52,315 bases of DNA, from positions 1 to 52,315 of the IMG/VR virus record IMGVR_UViG_3300038371_000007. One strand, 5' to 3'. How positions within the stretch are numbered: position 1 is the stretch's first letter; the number at the start of each line of letters is the position of its first letter. The notes below the pieces were generated by a model. The model saw only the letters and a list, made by a program, of their open reading frames with translations, ran no database searches and had not been told where the DNA came from. The translations under genes and the position numbers were made by a program. This stretch comes from a virus. Taxonomy: Duplodnaviria > Caudoviricetes. Positions 1 to 30,119 of this stretch are shown here, in pieces.

Positions 1-2
1 CT

Positions 3-36
3 CCACACACGCATACACACACGCACACGCACGCGA
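3..36. repeat. Short CA/CACG-rich simple repeat at the window start, possibly the genome terminus
   Basis: ccacacacgcatacacacacgcacacgcacgcga; followed by a non-coding promoter-rich leader, as at podovirus left ends. Confidence 0.4.
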
Positions 37-373
37 CTTGCATAAATTCTTCAGGAAGTCAACACATGACTAACATTTATTGCAGAGGGTAGATAGATTT
101 GTTTTGTATATGTTACATCCCCACAACACCAGACAAGCAACGGCAAGGAACACGGGGTGGGTGTATGTCTCTGGTGTTGCTGTAGAAACCTTCCTTCTTT
201 CGTTTGCCGCCTTGGCGGCGTCCTCTCTGGGTAGGTCCCCTTCTGTAGTATAAAAAACGCTTCGCACCCCACGTAGGTGTTGACTTCTGTTGTCGTTTAG
301 GTTAATCGCGCGTCCCGCGTTCTTGTAGCGAGAAAGGGGGATTGAATGTTTCAATCCTGTAACATTTCGTTAC

Positions 374-402
374 TTGCTTTTAGGTTTGGGATAGGCCATA
401 AC
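374..402 (+). promoter_or_regulatory. Putative sigma70-type early promoter P1
   Basis: TTGCTT-17 nt-CATAAC. Confidence 0.45.
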
Positions 403-612
403 TAACCCATCGAAAGACGGTCAACCGGGACCGCCGCAAGGTACTAAACCGGGGTCGGGAGCCGGCCTTACCAGCCCGTGGATAGAGGTGCACCACGTTA
501 AAGGGCCTCCGTTATGCCTAAACCTAGGGCTACACGGTAGAGCGGTTAACACTGCGACATTCGTGGACACATACAGACAGAAGACCAAAGGAACAGAGAA
601 TGAAAAAAGATC

Positions 613-18879: not shown

Positions 18880-20735
18880 TCTTTGATGTCGAGAGCGACG
18901 GTCTCCTTGACGAAGCCACGAAGATCCACGTTCTTGCCTATGAGGTGGACGGAAAAGTTCATCACACCCACGACTACGAAGAGATGAGACGTATCCTCAC
19001 TAGCGCTAAGCTATTGATTGGACACAACATTATCCTATACGACATCCCTCTTGTTGAGAAGCTCCTCAACATTAAGGTGAAAGCCAGGCTGATAGACACC
19101 CTTCCCCTCTCGTGGTACTTGAATCACAACAGGGTGAGGCATGGTCTTGAGGTGTACGGGGAAGAGTATGGAGTACCGAAGCCTGTCATTGACAACTGGG
19201 AAAGTCTAACTCCTGAGGAGTATGCACACCGCTGTAGAGAAGATGTCAAGATTAATCTTCGCCTTTGGACTGACCTGAGAAAGAAACTCCTCCGTCTGTA
19301 TTCAGACAAGAGGGGGGCAGACAGGCTCATCAAGTACCTCACGTTCAAGATGGATTGTGTTCGTGAACAGGAGAGGAGTAGGTGGAAGGTTGACCTCGAC
19401 AAGGTTAGAAAGTCTCTGGGAGAACTCTACCTCATCAAGGAGGAAAAGGTTGAACAACTCAAGGAACACATGCCCCCTGTGCAGAAGTACAGGAAGGCAA
19501 GTCGTCCTAAGAAACCGTTCACCAAATCAGGAGACTACTCCGCTGTAGGTGCTAGGTGGTTTAAACACCTACGAGACTTGGGCTTGCCCGAGGACTACGA
19601 CGGAGAGATCCAGATTCCCAGCAAGGTGGAGCCGCCTAACCCCGGAAGTAGTGACCAAGTCAAAGACTGGCTCTTCACTCTGGGGTGGGTTCCTGCAAGC
19701 TTTGACTACAAGAAGAACGAGGATGGAAGCGAGAGGAAGGTTCCTCAAGTGAGAGTCCTTGACGGAGACAGGAACAAAGTGTTGTGCCCCTCCGTCCTTC
19801 GTCTCGTGGAAAAGCACCCAGAGGTTGAACTCCTTGATGGACTCACCGTTGTGTCTCACCGAATCTCCGTGCTTGAAGGGTTCCTGAAAAGCCACAAGAA
19901 TGGGTGGCTACAGGCGAGAGTTAATGGACTAACCAACACACTTCGCTTCAAACACAAAGAACTGGTGAACCTTCCGGGGGCAGCCAAGCCTTTCAGTGAA
20001 GCAATTAGGGGCAGCCTCATTGCACCAGAAGGACACGAGCTATGTGGTAGTGACATGTGCTCTCTTGAAAGTAACACCAAGAGACACTACATGTATCCAC
20101 ATGACCCTTCGTATGTAGAGGAGATGTCTAAGCCGGGCTTCGATGAACACCTCGACTTGGCTAAGCTGGCAGGTCGTGTGACCCAAGAACAAATCGACAA
20201 CTACAACAAAGGAATTGCAGATGTAGTTAAGAAACTAAAACCTGTGCGTGGCCTGTTCAAACCTGCAAACTACGCAGGTATTTATGGGGTGCGAGAGAAG
20301 ACGCTTAGCAGGCAAACGGGTATGCCTGAGAAGCAATGCAAAGAGCTTCTGGATATTTACTGGAAGCGTAACTGGTCCGTCAAGAAGATCGCCCAAGAAG
20401 TTGAGGTGAAGAAGGTTGACGGTGAGATGTGGTTGTTCAACCCTGTGTCTCAGCTTTGGTACTCTCTTCGTTATGAGAAAGATATTTTCTCTACACTCAA
20501 CCAAGGCACAGGGGTCTTCTGTTTTGACTCTTGGGTTCGTGAACTGCGTAACATGGGACTGGAGCTTACCGCTCAAATGCATGATGAAATTATTGTGCGT
20601 ATCAAGAGGGGTGACAGAGAGAGGACTAACGAGATACTTAAGGAGGCTATCCTGAAAGTGAACAATATACTTAAACTAAATGTTGACTTGGATGTTGACG
20701 TACAATTCGGGGATAGCTATGCGGAAATCCACTAA
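18876..20735 (+). CDS. DNA polymerase family A with 3'-5' exonuclease domain
   Basis: ExoI DVESDG, ExoII GHNI..YD, ExoIII CREDV; motif A GSDMCSLE, motif B KPANYAGIYG (Tyr at the 762-equivalent position), motif C MHDE. Confidence 0.96.
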   Translation: MIFDVESDGLLDEATKIHVLAYEVDGKVHHTHDYEEMRRILTSAKLLIGHNIILYDIPLVEKLLNIKVKARLIDTLPLSWYLNHNRVRHGLEVYGEEYGVPKPVIDNWESLTPEEYAHRCREDVKINLRLWTDLRKKLLRLYSDKRGADRLIKYLTFKMDCVREQERSRWKVDLDKVRKSLGELYLIKEEKVEQLKEHMPPVQKYRKASRPKKPFTKSGDYSAVGARWFKHLRDLGLPEDYDGEIQIPSKVEPPNPGSSDQVKDWLFTLGWVPASFDYKKNEDGSERKVPQVRVLDGDRNKVLCPSVLRLVEKHPEVELLDGLTVVSHRISVLEGFLKSHKNGWLQARVNGLTNTLRFKHKELVNLPGAAKPFSEAIRGSLIAPEGHELCGSDMCSLESNTKRHYMYPHDPSYVEEMSKPGFDEHLDLAKLAGRVTQEQIDNYNKGIADVVKKLKPVRGLFKPANYAGIYGVREKTLSRQTGMPEKQCKELLDIYWKRNWSVKKIAQEVEVKKVDGEMWLFNPVSQLWYSLRYEKDIFSTLNQGTGVFCFDSWVRELRNMGLELTAQMHDEIIVRIKRGDRERTNEILKEAILKVNNILKLNVDLDVDVQFGDSYAEIH

Positions 20736-21117
20736 TTGCGTTGTGCCAGAAGACGGACACAGGAATAGTGACGGATACGTAAGAGTTCTCGATAGGCCCA
20801 GAAAAGACGGGGGTAGGTTGGTAATGTTGCACCGTCTTGAGTGGGAGAAGATCAACGGACCTATCCCGGAGGGTCACGAGGTAAATCACAAGTGCAAGAA
20901 CAGGGAGTGTTGTAATGTGAACCACTTGGAAGTCTTGAGTAGGTCAGAGCATAAAAGCTTGGACAATGCTAAAAGATATAAAGGAAGAGAGGATTCAATC
21001 GTAGCATTCTTTATGAAGAGTGACGGGGTGCCTATGAAGTGTCTGTCTTCTGTAACAGGACTTCATGCAAACTCTCTAAGAAAGATGATTAACAGAAGGG
21101 TAACTAACCTTGAGTGA
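20719..21117 (+). CDS. Free-standing HNH homing endonuclease
   Basis: DGY...HRLEWE..NGPIPEGHEVNHKCKNRECCNVNHL; overlaps the end of the polymerase gene. Confidence 0.88.
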   Translation: MRKSTNCVVPEDGHRNSDGYVRVLDRPRKDGGRLVMLHRLEWEKINGPIPEGHEVNHKCKNRECCNVNHLEVLSRSEHKSLDNAKRYKGREDSIVAFFMKSDGVPMKCLSSVTGLHANSLRKMINRRVTNLE

Positions 21118-21577: not shown

Positions 21578-22324
21578 ATGGCATTGAACGCACGTAAAGT
21601 TGGGGGCACCTCTAAATTCAAGCGGCCCCCTGCACTGGAAGCAGGCACCTACCCAGCCCGTCTGGTTCAGGTAGTTGACTTGGGGATTCAACCTCAGCGC
21701 CCTTGGCAGGGTCAGGACAAACCCCCTGCAAATATGATTATGACTACATATGAGATCCTCGATGAGTTCCTTACTGACGAGGAGGGGAATGAGATGACTG
21801 ACAAACCCCGGTGGGTAAGTGAAGACTTCCCCCTCTTCTCTCTTGATAGTGATCGTGCTAAGTCTACCCAGCGCTACACAGCAATGGACCAAGATCTTGA
21901 GCATGACGGAGACTGGGGTAAGCTGGTTGGCACCCCTTGTATTGTCACCCTGTCGGCAGACAAGGATCGTAATGGCAAGAAAGATCAGGACGGTAATGTC
22001 ATCGTCTATAACAACATCTCCTCTGTTCAGCCTATGCGAGCCAAGGATGCTGCTAAGGCAGAGCCTTTGAAGAACCCCACCAAGGTGTTTGATATGGGCG
22101 AGCCTGATCTGGATGTGTTCTTGTCCCTGCCTGAGTGGCTTCGTGATAAGATTAAATCTTCTCTTGAGTACGCTGGCTCCGTCCTCGAAGACCTCTTGTC
22201 TAAGATTGACGAGAAGGAGGAGATTGAGAAGCGTCGTTCTTCGGACAAGAAAGAGGAAGAACCTGTCAAGGAAGAGGGGAAGTCCAACCCCCCCGCATCT
22301 GATGATGACGACGAAGATTGGTAA
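21578..22324 (+). CDS. Putative single-stranded DNA-binding protein
   Basis: GTYPARLVQVVDLG N-terminus; acidic tail ending DDDDEDW; replication-module context. Confidence 0.7.
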   Translation: MALNARKVGGTSKFKRPPALEAGTYPARLVQVVDLGIQPQRPWQGQDKPPANMIMTTYEILDEFLTDEEGNEMTDKPRWVSEDFPLFSLDSDRAKSTQRYTAMDQDLEHDGDWGKLVGTPCIVTLSADKDRNGKKDQDGNVIVYNNISSVQPMRAKDAAKAEPLKNPTKVFDMGEPDLDVFLSLPEWLRDKIKSSLEYAGSVLEDLLSKIDEKEEIEKRRSSDKKEEEPVKEEGKSNPPASDDDDEDW

Positions 22325-22390
22325 TGAGTGGTGGGGGTGGTCTTTCGACTGCCCCCATGACGACTGTACTCACTGGGCTGGAGGATTATA

Positions 22391-22888
22391 ATGAGCAGAG
22401 ACTATTGGTTTATTTCAGACACTCACTTTCAACACAAGAACATCCTGAAATTTAGTCCGGGCCCGTTCTCTTCTGTTGAGGAGAGGGATGAGGTTATGAT
22501 TGAGAACTGGAACAGTGTAGTTAAGAATGGTGATTATGTTTACCACCTGGGGGATGTGTTCTTTGGCAGCAAGGAAACTTTCCCATCCCTTTGGAAGAGG
22601 CTCAATGGAAGCAAGAGGCTAATCATTGGTAATCACGACGATCCCATGTACTTCGCTAAGGGGGGTTTCGTAAAGAAGATGGGCTTGTGGAAAGTTTGGC
22701 ATGACAGAAACCTCTTGTTTACCCACGTACCTGTGCATGAGGATAGCATCAGAGAGCGCCTGTGCGGGGCAGGAGAGCCCCTTAACGTACATGGGCACAC
22801 CCACCTAAACGGATCTCCGGAAGGCCCGTACAGGAGCGTCTGTGTGGAGCTAAACAACTACACCCCGGTTAACCTAGAGGAGTTGTGA
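22391..22888 (+). CDS. Calcineurin-like metallophosphoesterase
   Basis: SDTHF, HLGDV, GNHD, THVP, HGHTH. Confidence 0.92.
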   Translation: MSRDYWFISDTHFQHKNILKFSPGPFSSVEERDEVMIENWNSVVKNGDYVYHLGDVFFGSKETFPSLWKRLNGSKRLIIGNHDDPMYFAKGGFVKKMGLWKVWHDRNLLFTHVPVHEDSIRERLCGAGEPLNVHGHTHLNGSPEGPYRSVCVELNNYTPVNLEEL

Positions 22889-23100
22889 TGCAGACAAGGG
22901 ACTTAAAAGTGGACCTACTGTATACCCCGAGAAGGGGTATGAGTGTCCCGGACATGTCCCCCCCTGTGAGGGTGACTCATGTCCCCACTGGCACCGCTGT
23001 AACAGTAAGGGCCACTAATACACACCTCTCTAGAAATATAGCTATTGAGATGATAGAGTGGGCGCTACTTTATGAAAACAAATTACTGGAGGCAGAATGA
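22888..23100 (+). CDS. Small protein resembling release-factor domain 3, lacking GGQ
   Basis: DLKVDL...VRVTHVPTG...SRNIAIEMI matches the class I release-factor pattern DLRID...IRITHLPTG...KNKAKAL. Confidence 0.6.
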   Translation: MQTRDLKVDLLYTPRRGMSVPDMSPPVRVTHVPTGTAVTVRATNTHLSRNIAIEMIEWALLYENKLLEAE

Positions 23101-23297
23101 GAAAGGATCTACGTATTCAGGTGTTTTCTTCCTGTGACGGGCACAGTGTACAGGTTATCAACACTGATGAAAATAAGGTAGTTCACCACTCTTCGTGGGA
23201 CCATAACAATGCAGAGCTGGGCGCAGGAGGGGAGGTCAACTTCGTGAGACTTCTGGAGTGGTTAGGGTATGACGTCTACCATGAGGAGGTTTACTAG
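23097..23297 (+). CDS. Hypothetical protein
   Basis: GGAGG RBS; ATGA overlap. Confidence 0.65.
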   Translation: MRKDLRIQVFSSCDGHSVQVINTDENKVVHHSSWDHNNAELGAGGEVNFVRLLEWLGYDVYHEEVY

Positions 23298-24670
23298 TGC
23301 AGCCATTGCTAGACGCTGACGTGCTCCTGCACGAGCTGGGGTGGAGCGGGGAGTTCACGGACAAAGACACAGGAGAGGAGATGCTTCTGTCCTTTGAACA
23401 TGTGGCTAGCCTACTAGACGACAAGATTGATTTGATCTGTTACGAAGTAGAGGCCACTGAACCACCAATCCTATATGTCTCAGACTCAGAGGAGATTACT
23501 CGCCGCGTGAACAAGATGCTTAGATGGCAGGGTGAGCCAGAGCGTAAGTTCACGCCCAACTTTAGATACGAGGTGGCTACCACCAAGCCATACAAAGGTA
23601 CTCGTAAGAACCCTAAACCTTTTCACTTCTACAACATCCTGTTCTACATGATGGCCAACTACAAAGTTGTTCTATCTGAAGACGGGTTAGAGGCAGATGA
23701 TATGATGTGCATAGCTCAGATTGAGAATGCTAAAGAGTACGGGGTGAAGGTAGATACACACGCTGGCCCTCTGCTGATGGACTACGAAGACTGGCTTGTC
23801 TACGGAAACACTACCTTTATTAAGGATGACAAAGGGTACTTCATAAACGACACAGGTAAGGGACCTACAAGATCTGTGTGGTCTTTTCATCGAAAGGTGA
23901 TGGGAGACCCTGAAGGGTTGGTTGTAGATCACATCAATGGGGACACTCATGACTGTCGTAAGTACAACCTGAGAGTGTGTAGCGTTAAAGAAAACATCAG
24001 AAACTCAAAACCACAAGGCGGGACATCTAACTACAAGGGGGTGAGCTACGATAAGTCTCGTGATAAGTGGTCTGCCAGCATCAAGGTGGACAGAAAGTCG
24101 ATCCATCTGGGAAGGTTCTCTGGCGAAGAGGATGCCGCTAAGGCTTACGACTCGGCTGCTAAAGAATACTTCGGAGAGTTTGCCCGCCTTAACTTTGAGG
24201 CTCCGCACTTTAAGCCTTTTAAACAGACGGTCATTTGTTCTAGAGACAAGGACCTGAGGATGTGTCCCTTGCTACACTACTCTTGGGAGTGCGGCAATCA
24301 ACGAGCACTAGGCCCTACCTACACAGACGACATTGGTCATCTGGAAGAAATCATCACTAAGAAGACTGATGAGAAGACGGGCAAGGTGAAGATTGATAAG
24401 AAGATCTTGGGTTATGGCAAGTCCTTCTTCTACTACCAGATGCTGGTGGGAGATAGTGCAGACAACATTCCCGGCCTGCCTAAGTGGGGACACGTCAAAG
24501 CCTATGAACTATTGAAAGACCTTAAGACAGAGAGAGGCTTGTTCAAAGCTGTGCAGAAGGCATACATTGAAACGATGAAGCTAGATGCTAAGCGACACTT
24601 CAGAGAGCAGGCCTCACTACTTTGGATGGTCCAAGAAAAAGGAAAAGAATATGCAACACCTTCAAGATAA
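23297..24670 (+). CDS. 5'-3' exonuclease (T7 gp6/FEN-like) with an in-frame HNH-AP2 endonuclease insertion
   Basis: DAD, NFR..PYKGTR, EADD, SRDKDL and GDSADNIPGL FEN motifs; HRKVM..VDHINGD..NLR and YKGVS..W.A.I..HLGRF..AAKAYD..FGEFARLNF lie between EADD and SRDKDL. Confidence 0.9.
   Translation: MQPLLDADVLLHELGWSGEFTDKDTGEEMLLSFEHVASLLDDKIDLICYEVEATEPPILYVSDSEEITRRVNKMLRWQGEPERKFTPNFRYEVATTKPYKGTRKNPKPFHFYNILFYMMANYKVVLSEDGLEADDMMCIAQIENAKEYGVKVDTHAGPLLMDYEDWLVYGNTTFIKDDKGYFINDTGKGPTRSVWSFHRKVMGDPEGLVVDHINGDTHDCRKYNLRVCSVKENIRNSKPQGGTSNYKGVSYDKSRDKWSASIKVDRKSIHLGRFSGEEDAAKAYDSAAKEYFGEFARLNFEAPHFKPFKQTVICSRDKDLRMCPLLHYSWECGNQRALGPTYTDDIGHLEEIITKKTDEKTGKVKIDKKILGYGKSFFYYQMLVGDSADNIPGLPKWGHVKAYELLKDLKTERGLFKAVQKAYIETMKLDAKRHFREQASLLWMVQEKGKEYATPSR
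23730..24225 (+). mobile_element. HNH-AP2 homing endonuclease module fused in frame inside the exonuclease (boundaries approximate)
   Basis: Complete HNH and AP2 domains (~165 aa); no Hint motifs and no intron core. Confidence 0.8.
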
Positions 24671-24815
24671 AGTCCTGTTCCACATTTCTATGTGGGGGCA
24701 GGCAGCGCTAATGGGGGCAGGCCTTCTGGGCATTGCCGCCCACTACTCTACCTTCCTCGCCATTCTGATTGGTGGGGCTGTGACTGCGGCTACTTTGCTC
24801 TACGACGATGAGTGA
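24651..24815 (+). CDS. Small membrane protein
   Basis: AAGGA RBS; two hydrophobic segments. Confidence 0.6.
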   Translation: MQHLQDKVLFHISMWGQAALMGAGLLGIAAHYSTFLAILIGGAVTAATLLYDDE

Positions 24816-25221
24816 TAAGACTCGTTGTAATGGCAACTGGACAGAGGCAAGGTACAGGGGGTTCATTACCTCTGCCCTTCGCAGGGCCTCGGGGCGTTGG
24901 GCCCCCAAGACTACAGTGAAGTCTAAGGCCCGTGTCTCTCGTGGTTTCTACACCTGTGCCTCCTGCAAAGAGGAGGTGCCTGCCTCTCTCAAGACCGAGA
25001 AGGGCAGGGTTAACAACGTGTATGTTGACCACATTGACCCTGTAGTGGACCCCTCTGTGGGGTTCACAACATGGGATGATTTTATAGAAAGATTGTTTTG
25101 CGAAGAAGATAATTTGCAAGTCCTGTGTAAGGCTTGCCATGACGAGAAGTCGTCAAAGGAAAAAGAAATTGCCAAAGAGCGGAGAAGGAAAGAACGTGAT
25201 GCAACTAGAAACATTCAATGA
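24808..25221 (+). CDS. HNH endonuclease (Zn-binding, CxxC type)
   Basis: CASC...VDHIDPV...NLQVLCKACHDEKS. Confidence 0.88.
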   Translation: MSDKTRCNGNWTEARYRGFITSALRRASGRWAPKTTVKSKARVSRGFYTCASCKEEVPASLKTEKGRVNNVYVDHIDPVVDPSVGFTTWDDFIERLFCEEDNLQVLCKACHDEKSSKEKEIAKERRRKERDATRNIQ

Positions 25222-25459
25222 AGTAGAGCACATGCCCCTGCGAGTATTCAACCGAGCAGTGATGGCATTCAATCTGGCAGAAGACTTCGGTCGTAAGGTT
25301 CTGGAAGAGTACCTTGAGCTGTTCTCTGAAGATGAGAAGGCCCAGATCTTTCTCATGACTCAGTACATCAAGGCCAAAGGTCCGGAGGCTGCACGTAAGT
25401 TTGCAACCAAAGATCTTCAGGTTGAGTATGACCCAGGGGAGGACGACAAAGATGAGTGA
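25199..25459 (+). CDS. Hypothetical protein
   Basis: AAGGA RBS, operon packing. Confidence 0.7.
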   Translation: MQLETFNEVEHMPLRVFNRAVMAFNLAEDFGRKVLEEYLELFSEDEKAQIFLMTQYIKAKGPEAARKFATKDLQVEYDPGEDDKDE

Positions 25460-25775
25460 GGGTGTTAAGTTCGATCAAGATAAGGTGAGGATGGAACTAG
25501 TCCCGGCAGAGCTTATGGTTGCTGTTGGCACCATCCTTACCTTCGGTGCCGAGAAATACGCCCCCAGAAACTGGGAGCTCGGGATGGATTGGTCTCGTGT
25601 ATTCGGGGCTCTACAGAGGCACCTGTGGGCATGGGAATCCGGGGAAGACAAAGACCCCGAGACAGGAAAGTCCCACCTATGGCACGCCGCTTGTTGTATT
25701 GCCTTTCTCGTTACGTACGAACAACGAGGTGTAGGTAAGGACGACCGGCCCAATTCTGAACAGGAGACAGTATGA
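25452..25775 (+). CDS. dATP/dGTP diphosphohydrolase-like protein (DUF5664)
   Basis: GVKFDQDK..ELVP, GAEKYAPRNW..G, RHL..W..GED.DPETG.SHL.HA. Confidence 0.85.
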   Translation: MSEGVKFDQDKVRMELVPAELMVAVGTILTFGAEKYAPRNWELGMDWSRVFGALQRHLWAWESGEDKDPETGKSHLWHAACCIAFLVTYEQRGVGKDDRPNSEQETV

Positions 25776-29637: not shown

Positions 29638-30119
29638 TGAAAGACTCATGTTGTATTTGCGACAAGCCTGCAAAGTCTAGGTGCACAGGAGAGAAAGGAG
29701 GGGCCGTCTACCACGGCCCCCTCTGCTCGGCTCACTACGAGAGGCTTAGACGGTGGGGAGACCCTACCTACTATCCCCCTCACAGATCTGATAAAGGCAA
29801 GACTAACAGAGATCCGAACAAAAGGTACAGTGATGGGGTTGATGGGTATGTTAAACTATTTCGTCCCGACCACCCAAACGCAGGGAAGGGAGGCTATGTA
29901 AGAGAGCATAGATATGTGATGTCTGAGCACATAGGGCGTCCACTCAAGAGCTCAGAGACGGTGCACCATATTAACGGGGACCGGTCTGATAATAGGATAG
30001 AAAATCTTGAACTTAGGGACGGACCCCACGGAAAGGGGGTTCGAGTGGAGGATAAGATTAAACAATCTATTGAATTTTTAAAACTGCATGGGTATGAATG
30101 CATTAGGAGTTGTGAATGA
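29637..30119 (+). CDS. Free-standing HNH homing endonuclease
   Basis: DGYV...HP.A..GYVREHRYVM...VHHINGDRSDNRIENL; N-terminal CxxC..CSAHY. Confidence 0.9.
   Translation: MKDSCCICDKPAKSRCTGEKGGAVYHGPLCSAHYERLRRWGDPTYYPPHRSDKGKTNRDPNKRYSDGVDGYVKLFRPDHPNAGKGGYVREHRYVMSEHIGRPLKSSETVHHINGDRSDNRIENLELRDGPHGKGVRVEDKIKQSIEFLKLHGYECIRSCE

Follow-up and report, generated by a model that had tools for sequence, protein, structure and literature searches.

The window analysed here, the IMG/VR record IMGVR_UViG_3300038371_000007 (Duplodnaviria; Caudoviricetes), is a whole virus record of 52,315 bases that is rated 99% complete and whose replication module is syntenic with that of Zobellviridae phages. An open reading frame (ORF) at 23297-24670 on the + strand encodes, from a GTG start and without stop codons in frame, a protein of 457 amino acids (aa); the TAG stop of the upstream ORF and this GTG have their G in common. 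The protein is a FEN-type 5'-3' exonuclease that contains, in the same reading frame, a complete HNH-AP2 endonuclease of the homing type. Its parts are the following:

23297..23731, + strand: N-terminal part of the FEN 5'-3' exonuclease (aa 1-145), including the catalytic motif EADD (aa 132-135), with helix 133-148

23732..24220, + strand: in-frame insert (aa 146-308), a complete HNH_3-AP2 endonuclease of the homing type without start or stop codon of its own

23909..23995, + strand: HNH_3 catalytic core (aa 205-233), from Pfam, with a weak match to I-HmuI (1u3e) by sequence and by Foldseek

24026..24175, + strand: AP2 DNA-binding domain (aa 244-293), from Pfam, structure and a sequence match

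24221..24670, + strand: C-terminal part of the exonuclease (aa 309-457 and stop), with the strand TVIC, the catalytic motif SRDKDL (aa 315-320) and the H3TH/SAM-fold region

24269..24271, + strand: codon 325, TTG (Leu), which is Gly in insert-free alleles

The original prediction, made from the letters of the window, had given EADD and SRDKDL the residue numbers listed here, and both motifs and positions are correct. It had also put some 165 aa between them; the long in-frame insert stands, its length being 163 aa. The bounds come from an alignment with the exonucleases of four Zobellviridae phages (263-295 aa, 41-62% identical), carried out as had been proposed: insert-free alleles were found, and the junctions fall at about aa 146-308, the extra segment being flanked by '...IAQIENAK' and 'KQTVICSRDKDL'. 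The premise that the two motifs are normally a short loop apart holds as well, the distance from EADD through DKD being 22-39 aa in 79 insert-free alleles (measured from DNA) and 188 aa in the window and two other carriers. Residues E132, A133, D134, D135, D317, K318 and D319 are invariant in 81 aligned sequences and in the 186 rows of the largest exonuclease tree (see below); the acidic residues of EADD and DKD we take to be metal ligands, as in T5 FEN. The exonuclease belongs to a divergent family: PF02739 has no match to the ORF in Pfam, and membership of the FEN group rests on the fold, the motifs and a match to the PHROGs exonuclease family phrog_107, which covers two separate stretches of the ORF (E 4.3e-45).

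Between these two stretches lies a match to the HNH endonuclease family phrog_99 (aa 192-309, E 1.7e-40). Two Pfam families exceed their cut-offs: HNH_3 (PF13392), which needs 24.8 bits, scores 32.9 at aa 205-233 (36.7 when the genome was scanned), and AP2 (PF00847), which needs 33.3, scores 42.2 at aa 244-293. The presence of a full HNH and a full AP2 domain in frame within the exonuclease, as first noticed from the translation, is thus confirmed. The AP2 part resembles WRI1 (7wq5) by sequence (E 8.5e-12), while the HNH part matches I-HmuI weakly (E 9.8e-3 by Foldseek, 0.045 by phmmer). The insert aligns end to end with two free-standing HNH endonucleases, one of 158 aa from Pseudomonas phage UFJF_PfDIW6 (41% identity) and one of 169 aa from Geobacillus virus E3 (36%); what is left over is a C-terminal linker of about nine residues, EAPHFKPFK. 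A tblastn search with the 163-aa insert alone matched 1741 phage records, 154 of which cover at least 80% of it.

The insert has no recognisable start codon context of its own and no stop codon. The only other ORF of at least 40 aa across it in a + frame has 65 aa (24060-24257), and a scan for promoters and terminators gave nothing inside the exonuclease ORF, counts being at the level of shuffled sequence. No second copy of the insert was found in the window. The guanine plus cytosine content of the insert (47.9%) is like that of its flanks (48.5% and 46.3%), so that a recent foreign origin cannot be argued from composition.

An AlphaFold2 model of the whole protein, based on an alignment of 81 sequences, has a mean predicted local distance difference test score (pLDDT) of 96.6, a predicted template modelling score (pTM) of 0.92, and no residue below 50. 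Along the model EADD is followed by helix 133-148, the strands and helices of the insert (150-295), strand 311-314 and SRDKD. Structural comparison with VIA-align gave ExoIX (3zda) a Z of 18.2 with a root-mean-square deviation (rmsd) of 3.0 over 219 aligned residues, in model range 1..449; T5 FEN (5hp4) and T4 RNase H (2ihn) followed with Z 16.7 and 15.1, the FEN fold extending over model residues 1..449-451. The structure prediction called for at the outset therefore recovers the FEN fold, an alpha/beta nuclease core (PIN-like) with a helix-3-turn-helix region after it, across the whole chain, and this fold is predicted to close around the insert. The AP2 part, with the fold of a three-stranded sheet and a helix, corresponds to AP2 domains of plants, among them 7wq5 (over model range 241..304, with Z 10.2 and an rmsd of 2.4 for 64 residues), and, over model residues 241-305, to the AP2 structures 7et4 (Z 10.0) and 1gcc (Z 9.1). 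According to the model the insertion site is a length-variable surface loop at the end of helix 133-148. The catalytic acids are situated at C-terminal strand ends and the junction at the far end of the 16-residue helix; because of these secondary-structure positions the insert would project from the face opposite the FEN active site, and the pTM would imply that the domains are fixed in their relative orientation.

Where a conserved phage gene harbours a homing endonuclease, the latter is usually part of an intron or intein, and an alternative to a protein read straight through is that the insert is removed, either as a non-canonical self-splicing intron whose frame is open by chance or as an atypical intein. 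Besides this general habit, Thr311 after the insert, a permitted +1 extein residue, speaks for such a removal. The searches speak against it. No intron family was found by Rfam at E<=10 in 22800-25300, atypical ribozymes falling outside such models, and the two matches obtained at that threshold are an Enterococcus small RNA and a human long non-coding RNA; among the matches of three Pfam and six NCBIfam families there is no Hint or intein model at E<=1. The three databases together thus give no intron, Hint or intein match at the junctions, in keeping with the absence of an intein or intron noted from the sequence. Nor are the ends those of an intein: the insert begins around E146, not with Cys or Ser, and no His-Asn precedes Thr311 (the residues before it being KPFKQ). 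Since all 163 aa are taken up by the HNH-AP2 unit, no room is left for Hint blocks or a separate ribozyme core. Frame and length are moreover kept through both junctions in 27 of 27 clusters of carrier proteins (described below), which introns do not need, and if the mature protein were the same as the insert-free one, there would be no explanation for the loss of Gly325 in carriers. Removal by splicing is in our judgement very improbable.

The record is a metagenome-derived virus contig, and an artefact was considered for that reason: the contig might be a chimera, or two or three genes might have been taken for one. In four of four run-wise assemblies one contig spans the whole stretch 22800-25200 (2401 bases), unjoined and with 0-4 differences, which settles the suspicion of an assembly chimera; the four runs belong to a single study, from which the record itself may derive, so that they exclude a one-off mis-join and do not amount to independent biology. 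The same 457-aa protein is present on 15 further contigs from other collections, 26 other, divergent clusters have the same arrangement, and there are no in-frame stops. We consider the chance of an artefact negligible. No insert-free form was seen in the contigs of the four runs, contigs being apt to drop rare variants.

The fusion recurs among predicted proteins. With a word-indexed search of proteins, 1709 matches were obtained at E<=0.001. Of the 120 best, 22 besides the query combine HNH_3 and/or AP2 with exonuclease parts, at 42-68% overall identity, and the insert position is identical in all 23. When a profile of these 23 was run over 1.84 billion cluster representatives, four carriers of greater divergence came to light (P0125, P0178, P0214 and P0231). 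In all, 27 divergent protein clusters of environmental phages carry the insert at one site, with identity in the exonuclease part going down to 39%. The distance from EADD to DKD is 188 aa in 19 of the 27 carriers and 189-193 aa in the other eight, and both junctions are open in all of them, in a set that was gathered from predicted proteins within a length band and would miss frameshifted or stopped copies. Residues H198, D211, H212, N224, L225, R226, N233 and N236 of the insert are invariant in 27 of 27; the D-H pair D211-H212, the structural Asn and the metal-binding Asn presumably have the roles known from I-HmuI and other HNH enzymes. Over 253 pairs of carriers the insert is more conserved than the host part in 222, with a mean identity of 59.2% against 47.1%. 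The carrier genes are currently unnamed or annotated as 'hypothetical protein'.

None of the 2137 matching records among 50,697 phage records covers at least 80% of the fusion protein in one place, and a megablast of 22300-25300 against the same 50,697 records gave no match. Within IMG/VR a profile scan found two carriers among the best 80 of 290 relatives, and a scan with the single protein only one exonuclease relative. A separate scan of metagenome contigs with the carrier profile showed no insert carrier among the best 80 loci listed. Three carriers, the window, L017 and L018, are some 47-55% identical at the protein level. Several candidates for other forms of the fusion were rejected. 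L120, L126 and L145, which looked like partial fusions by tblastn, are free-standing HNH-AP2 genes; L039, L058, L078, L082 and L090, whose long match spans suggested intron-containing or split alleles, each consist of an insert-free exonuclease and a separate HNH-AP2 gene. P0264 (183 aa), a possible split form, is an insert-free fragment, and P0268 (322 aa) results from calling the same protein at an internal ATG.

Phylogenies of the exonuclease were made with the insert columns removed. A tree of 121 proteins required five changes of insert label; this set is biased, as carriers score higher whatever their exonuclease, and the exonucleases of the IMG/VR loci were then added. The resulting tree of 186 rows (27 carriers and 159 insert-free; quick LG+G4) requires 15 gains or losses, at least 12 of which are forced by starred branches. 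Six carriers, each paired with an insert-free relative, illustrate the pattern (support by the Shimodaira-Hasegawa-like approximate likelihood ratio test, SH-aLRT):

P0028 (carrier) and L094 (insert-free sister): SH-aLRT 99; 262/280 identical over common columns (93.6%)

P0004 (carrier) and the P0071 group (insert-free): SH-aLRT 100; 252/282 identical

P0006 (carrier) and L058 (insert-free): SH-aLRT 97; 196/249 identical

P0025 (carrier) and L036 (insert-free): SH-aLRT 98

P0013 (carrier) and L073 (insert-free): SH-aLRT 98

P0007 (carrier) and L059 (insert-free): SH-aLRT 94

The history of the insert is not that of its host gene. Identity of the exonuclease and identity of the insert are hardly correlated over the 253 carrier pairs (r = 0.12): P0009 and P0025 have exonucleases that are 76% identical and inserts that are 52% identical, and for P0001 and P0006 the figures are 44% and 71%. 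Careful trees of 23 carriers, one for the exonuclease and one for the insert, conflict at well-supported nodes. By the approximately unbiased (AU) test the exonuclease data reject the insert clades {P0018, P0025, P0028} (p = 3e-85) and {P0012, P0014} (p = 0.012), and the insert data reject the exonuclease clades {P0009, P0025} (p = 0.002) and {P0011, P0012, P0028} (p = 0.0005), these p-values being optimistic because the choice of clades was made with the trees already in view. When the 27 inserted copies are placed in a tree with 64 free-standing HNH-AP2 proteins, 24 of them fall in one starred clade, which is compatible with a single origin of the inserted copies. The overall picture from these trees would be one of a single endonuclease lineage spread over many exonuclease backgrounds. 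The inserts of P0018, P0025 and P0028 are a distinct subtype ('QQNRHNS', 'WHSGKNKWESSIRVD', 'LGN'; support 100/99), and there are therefore two endonuclease sublineages of the same length at one site; the exonucleases of these three belong to different well-supported clades.

Close pairs of carriers and insert-free alleles differ most near the junction. P0028 and L094 differ at 7 of 20 positions within 10 aa of it and at 3 of 171 beyond 50 aa; for P0004 and P0071 the corresponding numbers are 6 of 18 and 13 of 186. Summed over seven pairs of a carrier and an insert-free allele, the nearest bin is 36% different and the far one 22%, against 23% near and 24% far in seven control pairs of insert-free alleles; as the controls have on average diverged further, it is the two closest pairs that show the effect best. 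Particularly striking is residue 325, which belongs to the 'CPGWHY' stretch and lies 17 codons past the junction: all insert-free rows (159 of 159) have Gly there, whereas 20 of the 27 carriers have another residue (14 Leu, 5 Phe and 1 Ser) and the remaining 7 have Gly. Taken over 12 phylogenetically independent comparisons of a carrier with an insert-free allele, the residue is altered along with the insert in about 9.9, stays the same in about 2.1 and goes the opposite way in none (median p of the sign test 0.002). P0018 and P0025 retain Gly325. The change fits co-conversion of a flanking marker during homing, protection of the carrier's own DNA from cleavage, or a packing contact with the inserted domain. 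The packing reading, together with the replacement of an otherwise invariant Gly, argues that the insert stays in the mature protein.

The original prediction had offered two explanations, an invasion of a surface loop that does without splicing, and a domesticated fusion of exonuclease and endonuclease. What they have in common, an insert in a surface loop that is read through and is neither intron nor intein, is supported; taken alone, this part of our interpretation seems to us very likely indeed. The first explanation is the one favoured, by the patchy tree, the conflicting trees of insert and host, and the near-identical insert-free sisters. The second is borne out as to some co-adaptation, visible in the pTM of 0.92 and in the replaced Gly325, and the two are not exclusive. 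Our full interpretation combines a read-through fusion, a working exonuclease and mobility by homing, and we hold this combination to be probable, with appreciably less assurance than its read-through part.

According to this interpretation the endonuclease would use the transcription and translation signals of the exonuclease gene. Expressed together with the replication genes, the ORF would yield one polypeptide of about 52 kDa, the insert being spliced at neither the RNA nor the protein level. The flap exonuclease would fold around the insert, leaving the HNH-AP2 part as a packed module of its own away from the FEN active site. FEN activity is probably retained, since the catalytic motifs are intact, the predicted fold is closed and carriers persist. 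In a mixed infection the fusion, or its HNH-AP2 module, would nick or cut insert-free alleles near the loop, on either side of which the DNA is better conserved than anywhere else in the gene (EADD, and ACxATCATCTGCTCxCGxGAYAARGAY). With the insert-bearing allele as template, recombinational repair would then transfer the insert and some 10-25 codons next to it. We infer that such cleavage takes place and that homing is the cause of the patchiness; the action of the insert as a homing endonuclease has indirect support in its patchy occurrence, in the conflict between the trees and in the differences at the flanks. As the endonuclease has no stop of its own, a truncating mutation in it also destroys the exonuclease, and the frame of the insert is thereby protected. 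The element would thus be shielded from the commonest route of decay, much as an intein is, and would have no need of splicing.

The explanation by domestication supposes a single capture, after which the module took on a role in what is now a bifunctional nuclease, for instance nicking before 5'-3' resection or targeting DNA; it would be inherited with the gene, and the patchiness would result from precise losses and from the swapping of alleles by ordinary recombination. The inserted copies are indeed essentially one lineage, their length is fixed (188-193 aa from EADD to DKD), the insert is the better conserved part, base composition is that of the flanks, and the high pTM and the Leu or Phe in place of an otherwise invariant Gly point the same way. 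On the other hand 159 of 186 rows are free of the insert, many of them sisters of carriers and up to 93.6% identical to them, which means that the module is dispensable. The forced changes on the tree, the strong conflict between host and insert trees, the concentration of close-pair differences at the junction as after conversion, and the failure of any matching phage record to cover at least 80% of the protein in one place also speak against it. Domestication remains in our estimate a minority explanation, possible and rather unlikely, and it shades into the one we prefer.

Several points weigh against the combination of read-through, working exonuclease and homing. The absence of splicing rests, as far as the sequence goes, on missing signals and on conservation of the frame, no RNA run being listed among the sequencing runs that contain the stretch, and the 27 intact frames are partly a product of how the set was gathered. 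The C-terminal SAM fold of 5_3_exonuc (PF01367, aa 377-429) reaches 33.9 bits in Pfam, under its cut-off of 40. Patchiness and incongruent trees can stem from ordinary recombination of phages within the gene, no cleavage being required; the AU p-values are, as said, optimistic, and the exonuclease clade {P0001, P0003, P0004, P0005} was not rejected (p = 0.15). The contigs of the four runs, in which rare variants tend to be lost, give no sign of a polymorphism between carrier and insert-free alleles in their population. Rigid packing, tight length and the change at residue 325 fit domestication as well as selfishness. Lastly, the copy in the window has Cys220 (codon 23954-23956; 'HDCRK' for 'LDNRK') where 26 of 27 carriers have Asn, and its own nuclease may be weakened as a result. 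The residue lies within the HNH_3 core, and the substitution may be the start of decay of this copy or may be neutral.

The nearest case that we found in print is the ShiLan domain of actinophage DNA methylases. ShiLan is described as an insertion through which the host frame stays open, in which neither intron nor intein could be detected and whose distribution is disjunct (PMC11855218, PMC9957025); its HNH lies hidden in another reading frame (frame 3), where it starts at a GTG and ends at a TAA of its own, the in-frame product being a poorly structured loop, and the disjunct distribution is read there as active homing (PMC11855218). The related Pacc40 insertion is described in the same sources as having an HNH with relatives among AP2 proteins (PMC11855218, PMC9957025). 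ShiLan and Pacc40 share with the present insert an open insertion in a conserved phage gene, the HNH, the lack of a splicing element, the disjunct distribution and a host fold predicted to be tolerant. Unlike ShiLan as there portrayed, the HNH-AP2 unit is here in the host frame, lacks start and stop, and is a well-folded domain in the prediction (pLDDT 96.6), and the host is a FEN exonuclease of marine Zobellviridae-like phages and not a methylase of actinophages. The differences that set the present case apart are thus the endonuclease in the host frame and its predicted good fold, the HNH_3-AP2 combination, the FEN host, and the 27 clusters with marks of mobility. A lone in-frame LAGLIDADG domain, found in nine related actinophage methylases such as Taj gp79, is reported to look vertically inherited (PMC9957025, PMC11855218). 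It resembles our insert as an in-frame domain of homing type that has no detected splicing domain or intron and is predicted to form its own domain; it differs in that here the domain is an HNH-AP2 one, with 27 clusters scattered over the host tree and conflicting trees.

With HNH and LAGLIDADG inteins the insert shares its in-frame position between catalytic motifs of a replication or repair enzyme, its expression through the host gene and the protection of its frame; unlike them it has no Hint domain, no N-terminal Cys or Ser and no C-terminal His-Asn, and it is expected to be present in the mature protein. Another endonuclease in a conserved phage gene, mobE in nrdA of Aeromonas phage Aeh1, is reportedly free-standing with its own start and stop, and splits the host gene into two frames whose products assemble. 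There too a homing endonuclease sits in a conserved gene, the host function is kept and no splicing element is involved; here, by contrast, there is one continuous reading frame. A literature search that was thin on subscription journals yielded no account of a FEN exonuclease with an HNH-AP2 insert.

The usual view is that homing endonucleases persist in conserved genes only by way of an intron or intein or by splitting the gene. The work on ShiLan raised the question whether splicing is needed, and the present case would be a clearer and much wider example. It would also provide a natural instance of a 5'-3' exonuclease combined with a nickase or nuclease that is directed by sequence (AP2 plus HNH), and an illustration of how multi-nuclease enzymes arise by domain insertion. 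It matters for annotation too, such genes now being unnamed or 'hypothetical protein'. A more speculative thought, which we rate as doubtful and lower than domestication, is that the fusion is a counterpart of an intein that needs no splicing, in which HNH-AP2 would nick the rival allele and the fused flap exonuclease would resect from the nick, the change of Gly325 either protecting the carrier or welding the domains together. If this were true, the element would represent a distinct class of mobile DNA, in which one polypeptide does both the cutting and the end-processing for homing.

Free-standing HNH-AP2 genes are found next to insert-free exonuclease genes in Vibrio phage 172P1 and in L039, L058, L078, L082, L090 and L099, and are situated either upstream or downstream. 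Those located beside the exonuclease include the following:

L058, 1805-2266: HNH-AP2 gene beside the exonuclease

L078, 1963-2424: HNH-AP2 gene beside the exonuclease

L082, 4002-4463: HNH-AP2 gene beside the exonuclease

L039, 3001-3390: HNH-AP2 gene beside the exonuclease

L099, 1501-1827: HNH-AP2 gene beside the exonuclease

L002, 3767-4261: HNH-AP2 gene beside the exonuclease

These neighbours have the same pair of HNH_3 and AP2 in the same genomic neighbourhood as the insert, and differ from it in being separate genes where the insert is fused in frame. The exonuclease gene may be their target too, and the in-frame form may descend from them; a neighbouring free-standing HNH-AP2 endonuclease suggests itself as the route by which the insert arose. 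Those compared have, however, an identity to the insert of only 24-42%, and L039 and L058, the two that were included in the tree, lie outside the clade of inserted copies.

The window phage itself has three HNH genes besides the insert. These and the other features in the vicinity of the exonuclease are:

20680-21117, + strand: free-standing HNH_3 gene, an ORF of 145 aa

about 29907-30014, + strand: free-standing HNH_3 gene, in an open frame of 162 aa

24808-25221, + strand: HNH gene of PF01844, 137 aa, just downstream of the exonuclease

25401-25775, + strand: ORF with dGTP_diPhyd_N (PF18909, E 9e-36)

24585-24815, + strand: ORF for a putative small membrane protein, with an overlap of 86 bases with the 3' end of the exonuclease

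21578-22324, + strand: ORF of 248 aa with an acidic, Asp-rich C-terminal tail (…PPASDDDDEDW) and no Pfam match

We take dGTP_diPhyd_N to be the N-terminal domain of dATP/dGTP diphosphohydrolases of phages with 2-aminoadenine genomes; a PurZ-like adenylosuccinate synthetase (PF00709) was sought and is absent from the record, so there is no evidence for a Z-genome. Phage PQ867840 has an annotated HNH endonuclease gene in the same relative position as 24808-25221. An in-frame ATG at 24651 would cut the overlap of the putative membrane protein gene with the exonuclease to 20 bases, the annotated overlap in PQ867840 being 23 bases. The ORF at 21578-22324 is placed where relatives annotate a 'phage protein' upstream of the exonuclease, and its acidic tail is, to our eye, reminiscent of single-stranded DNA-binding proteins.

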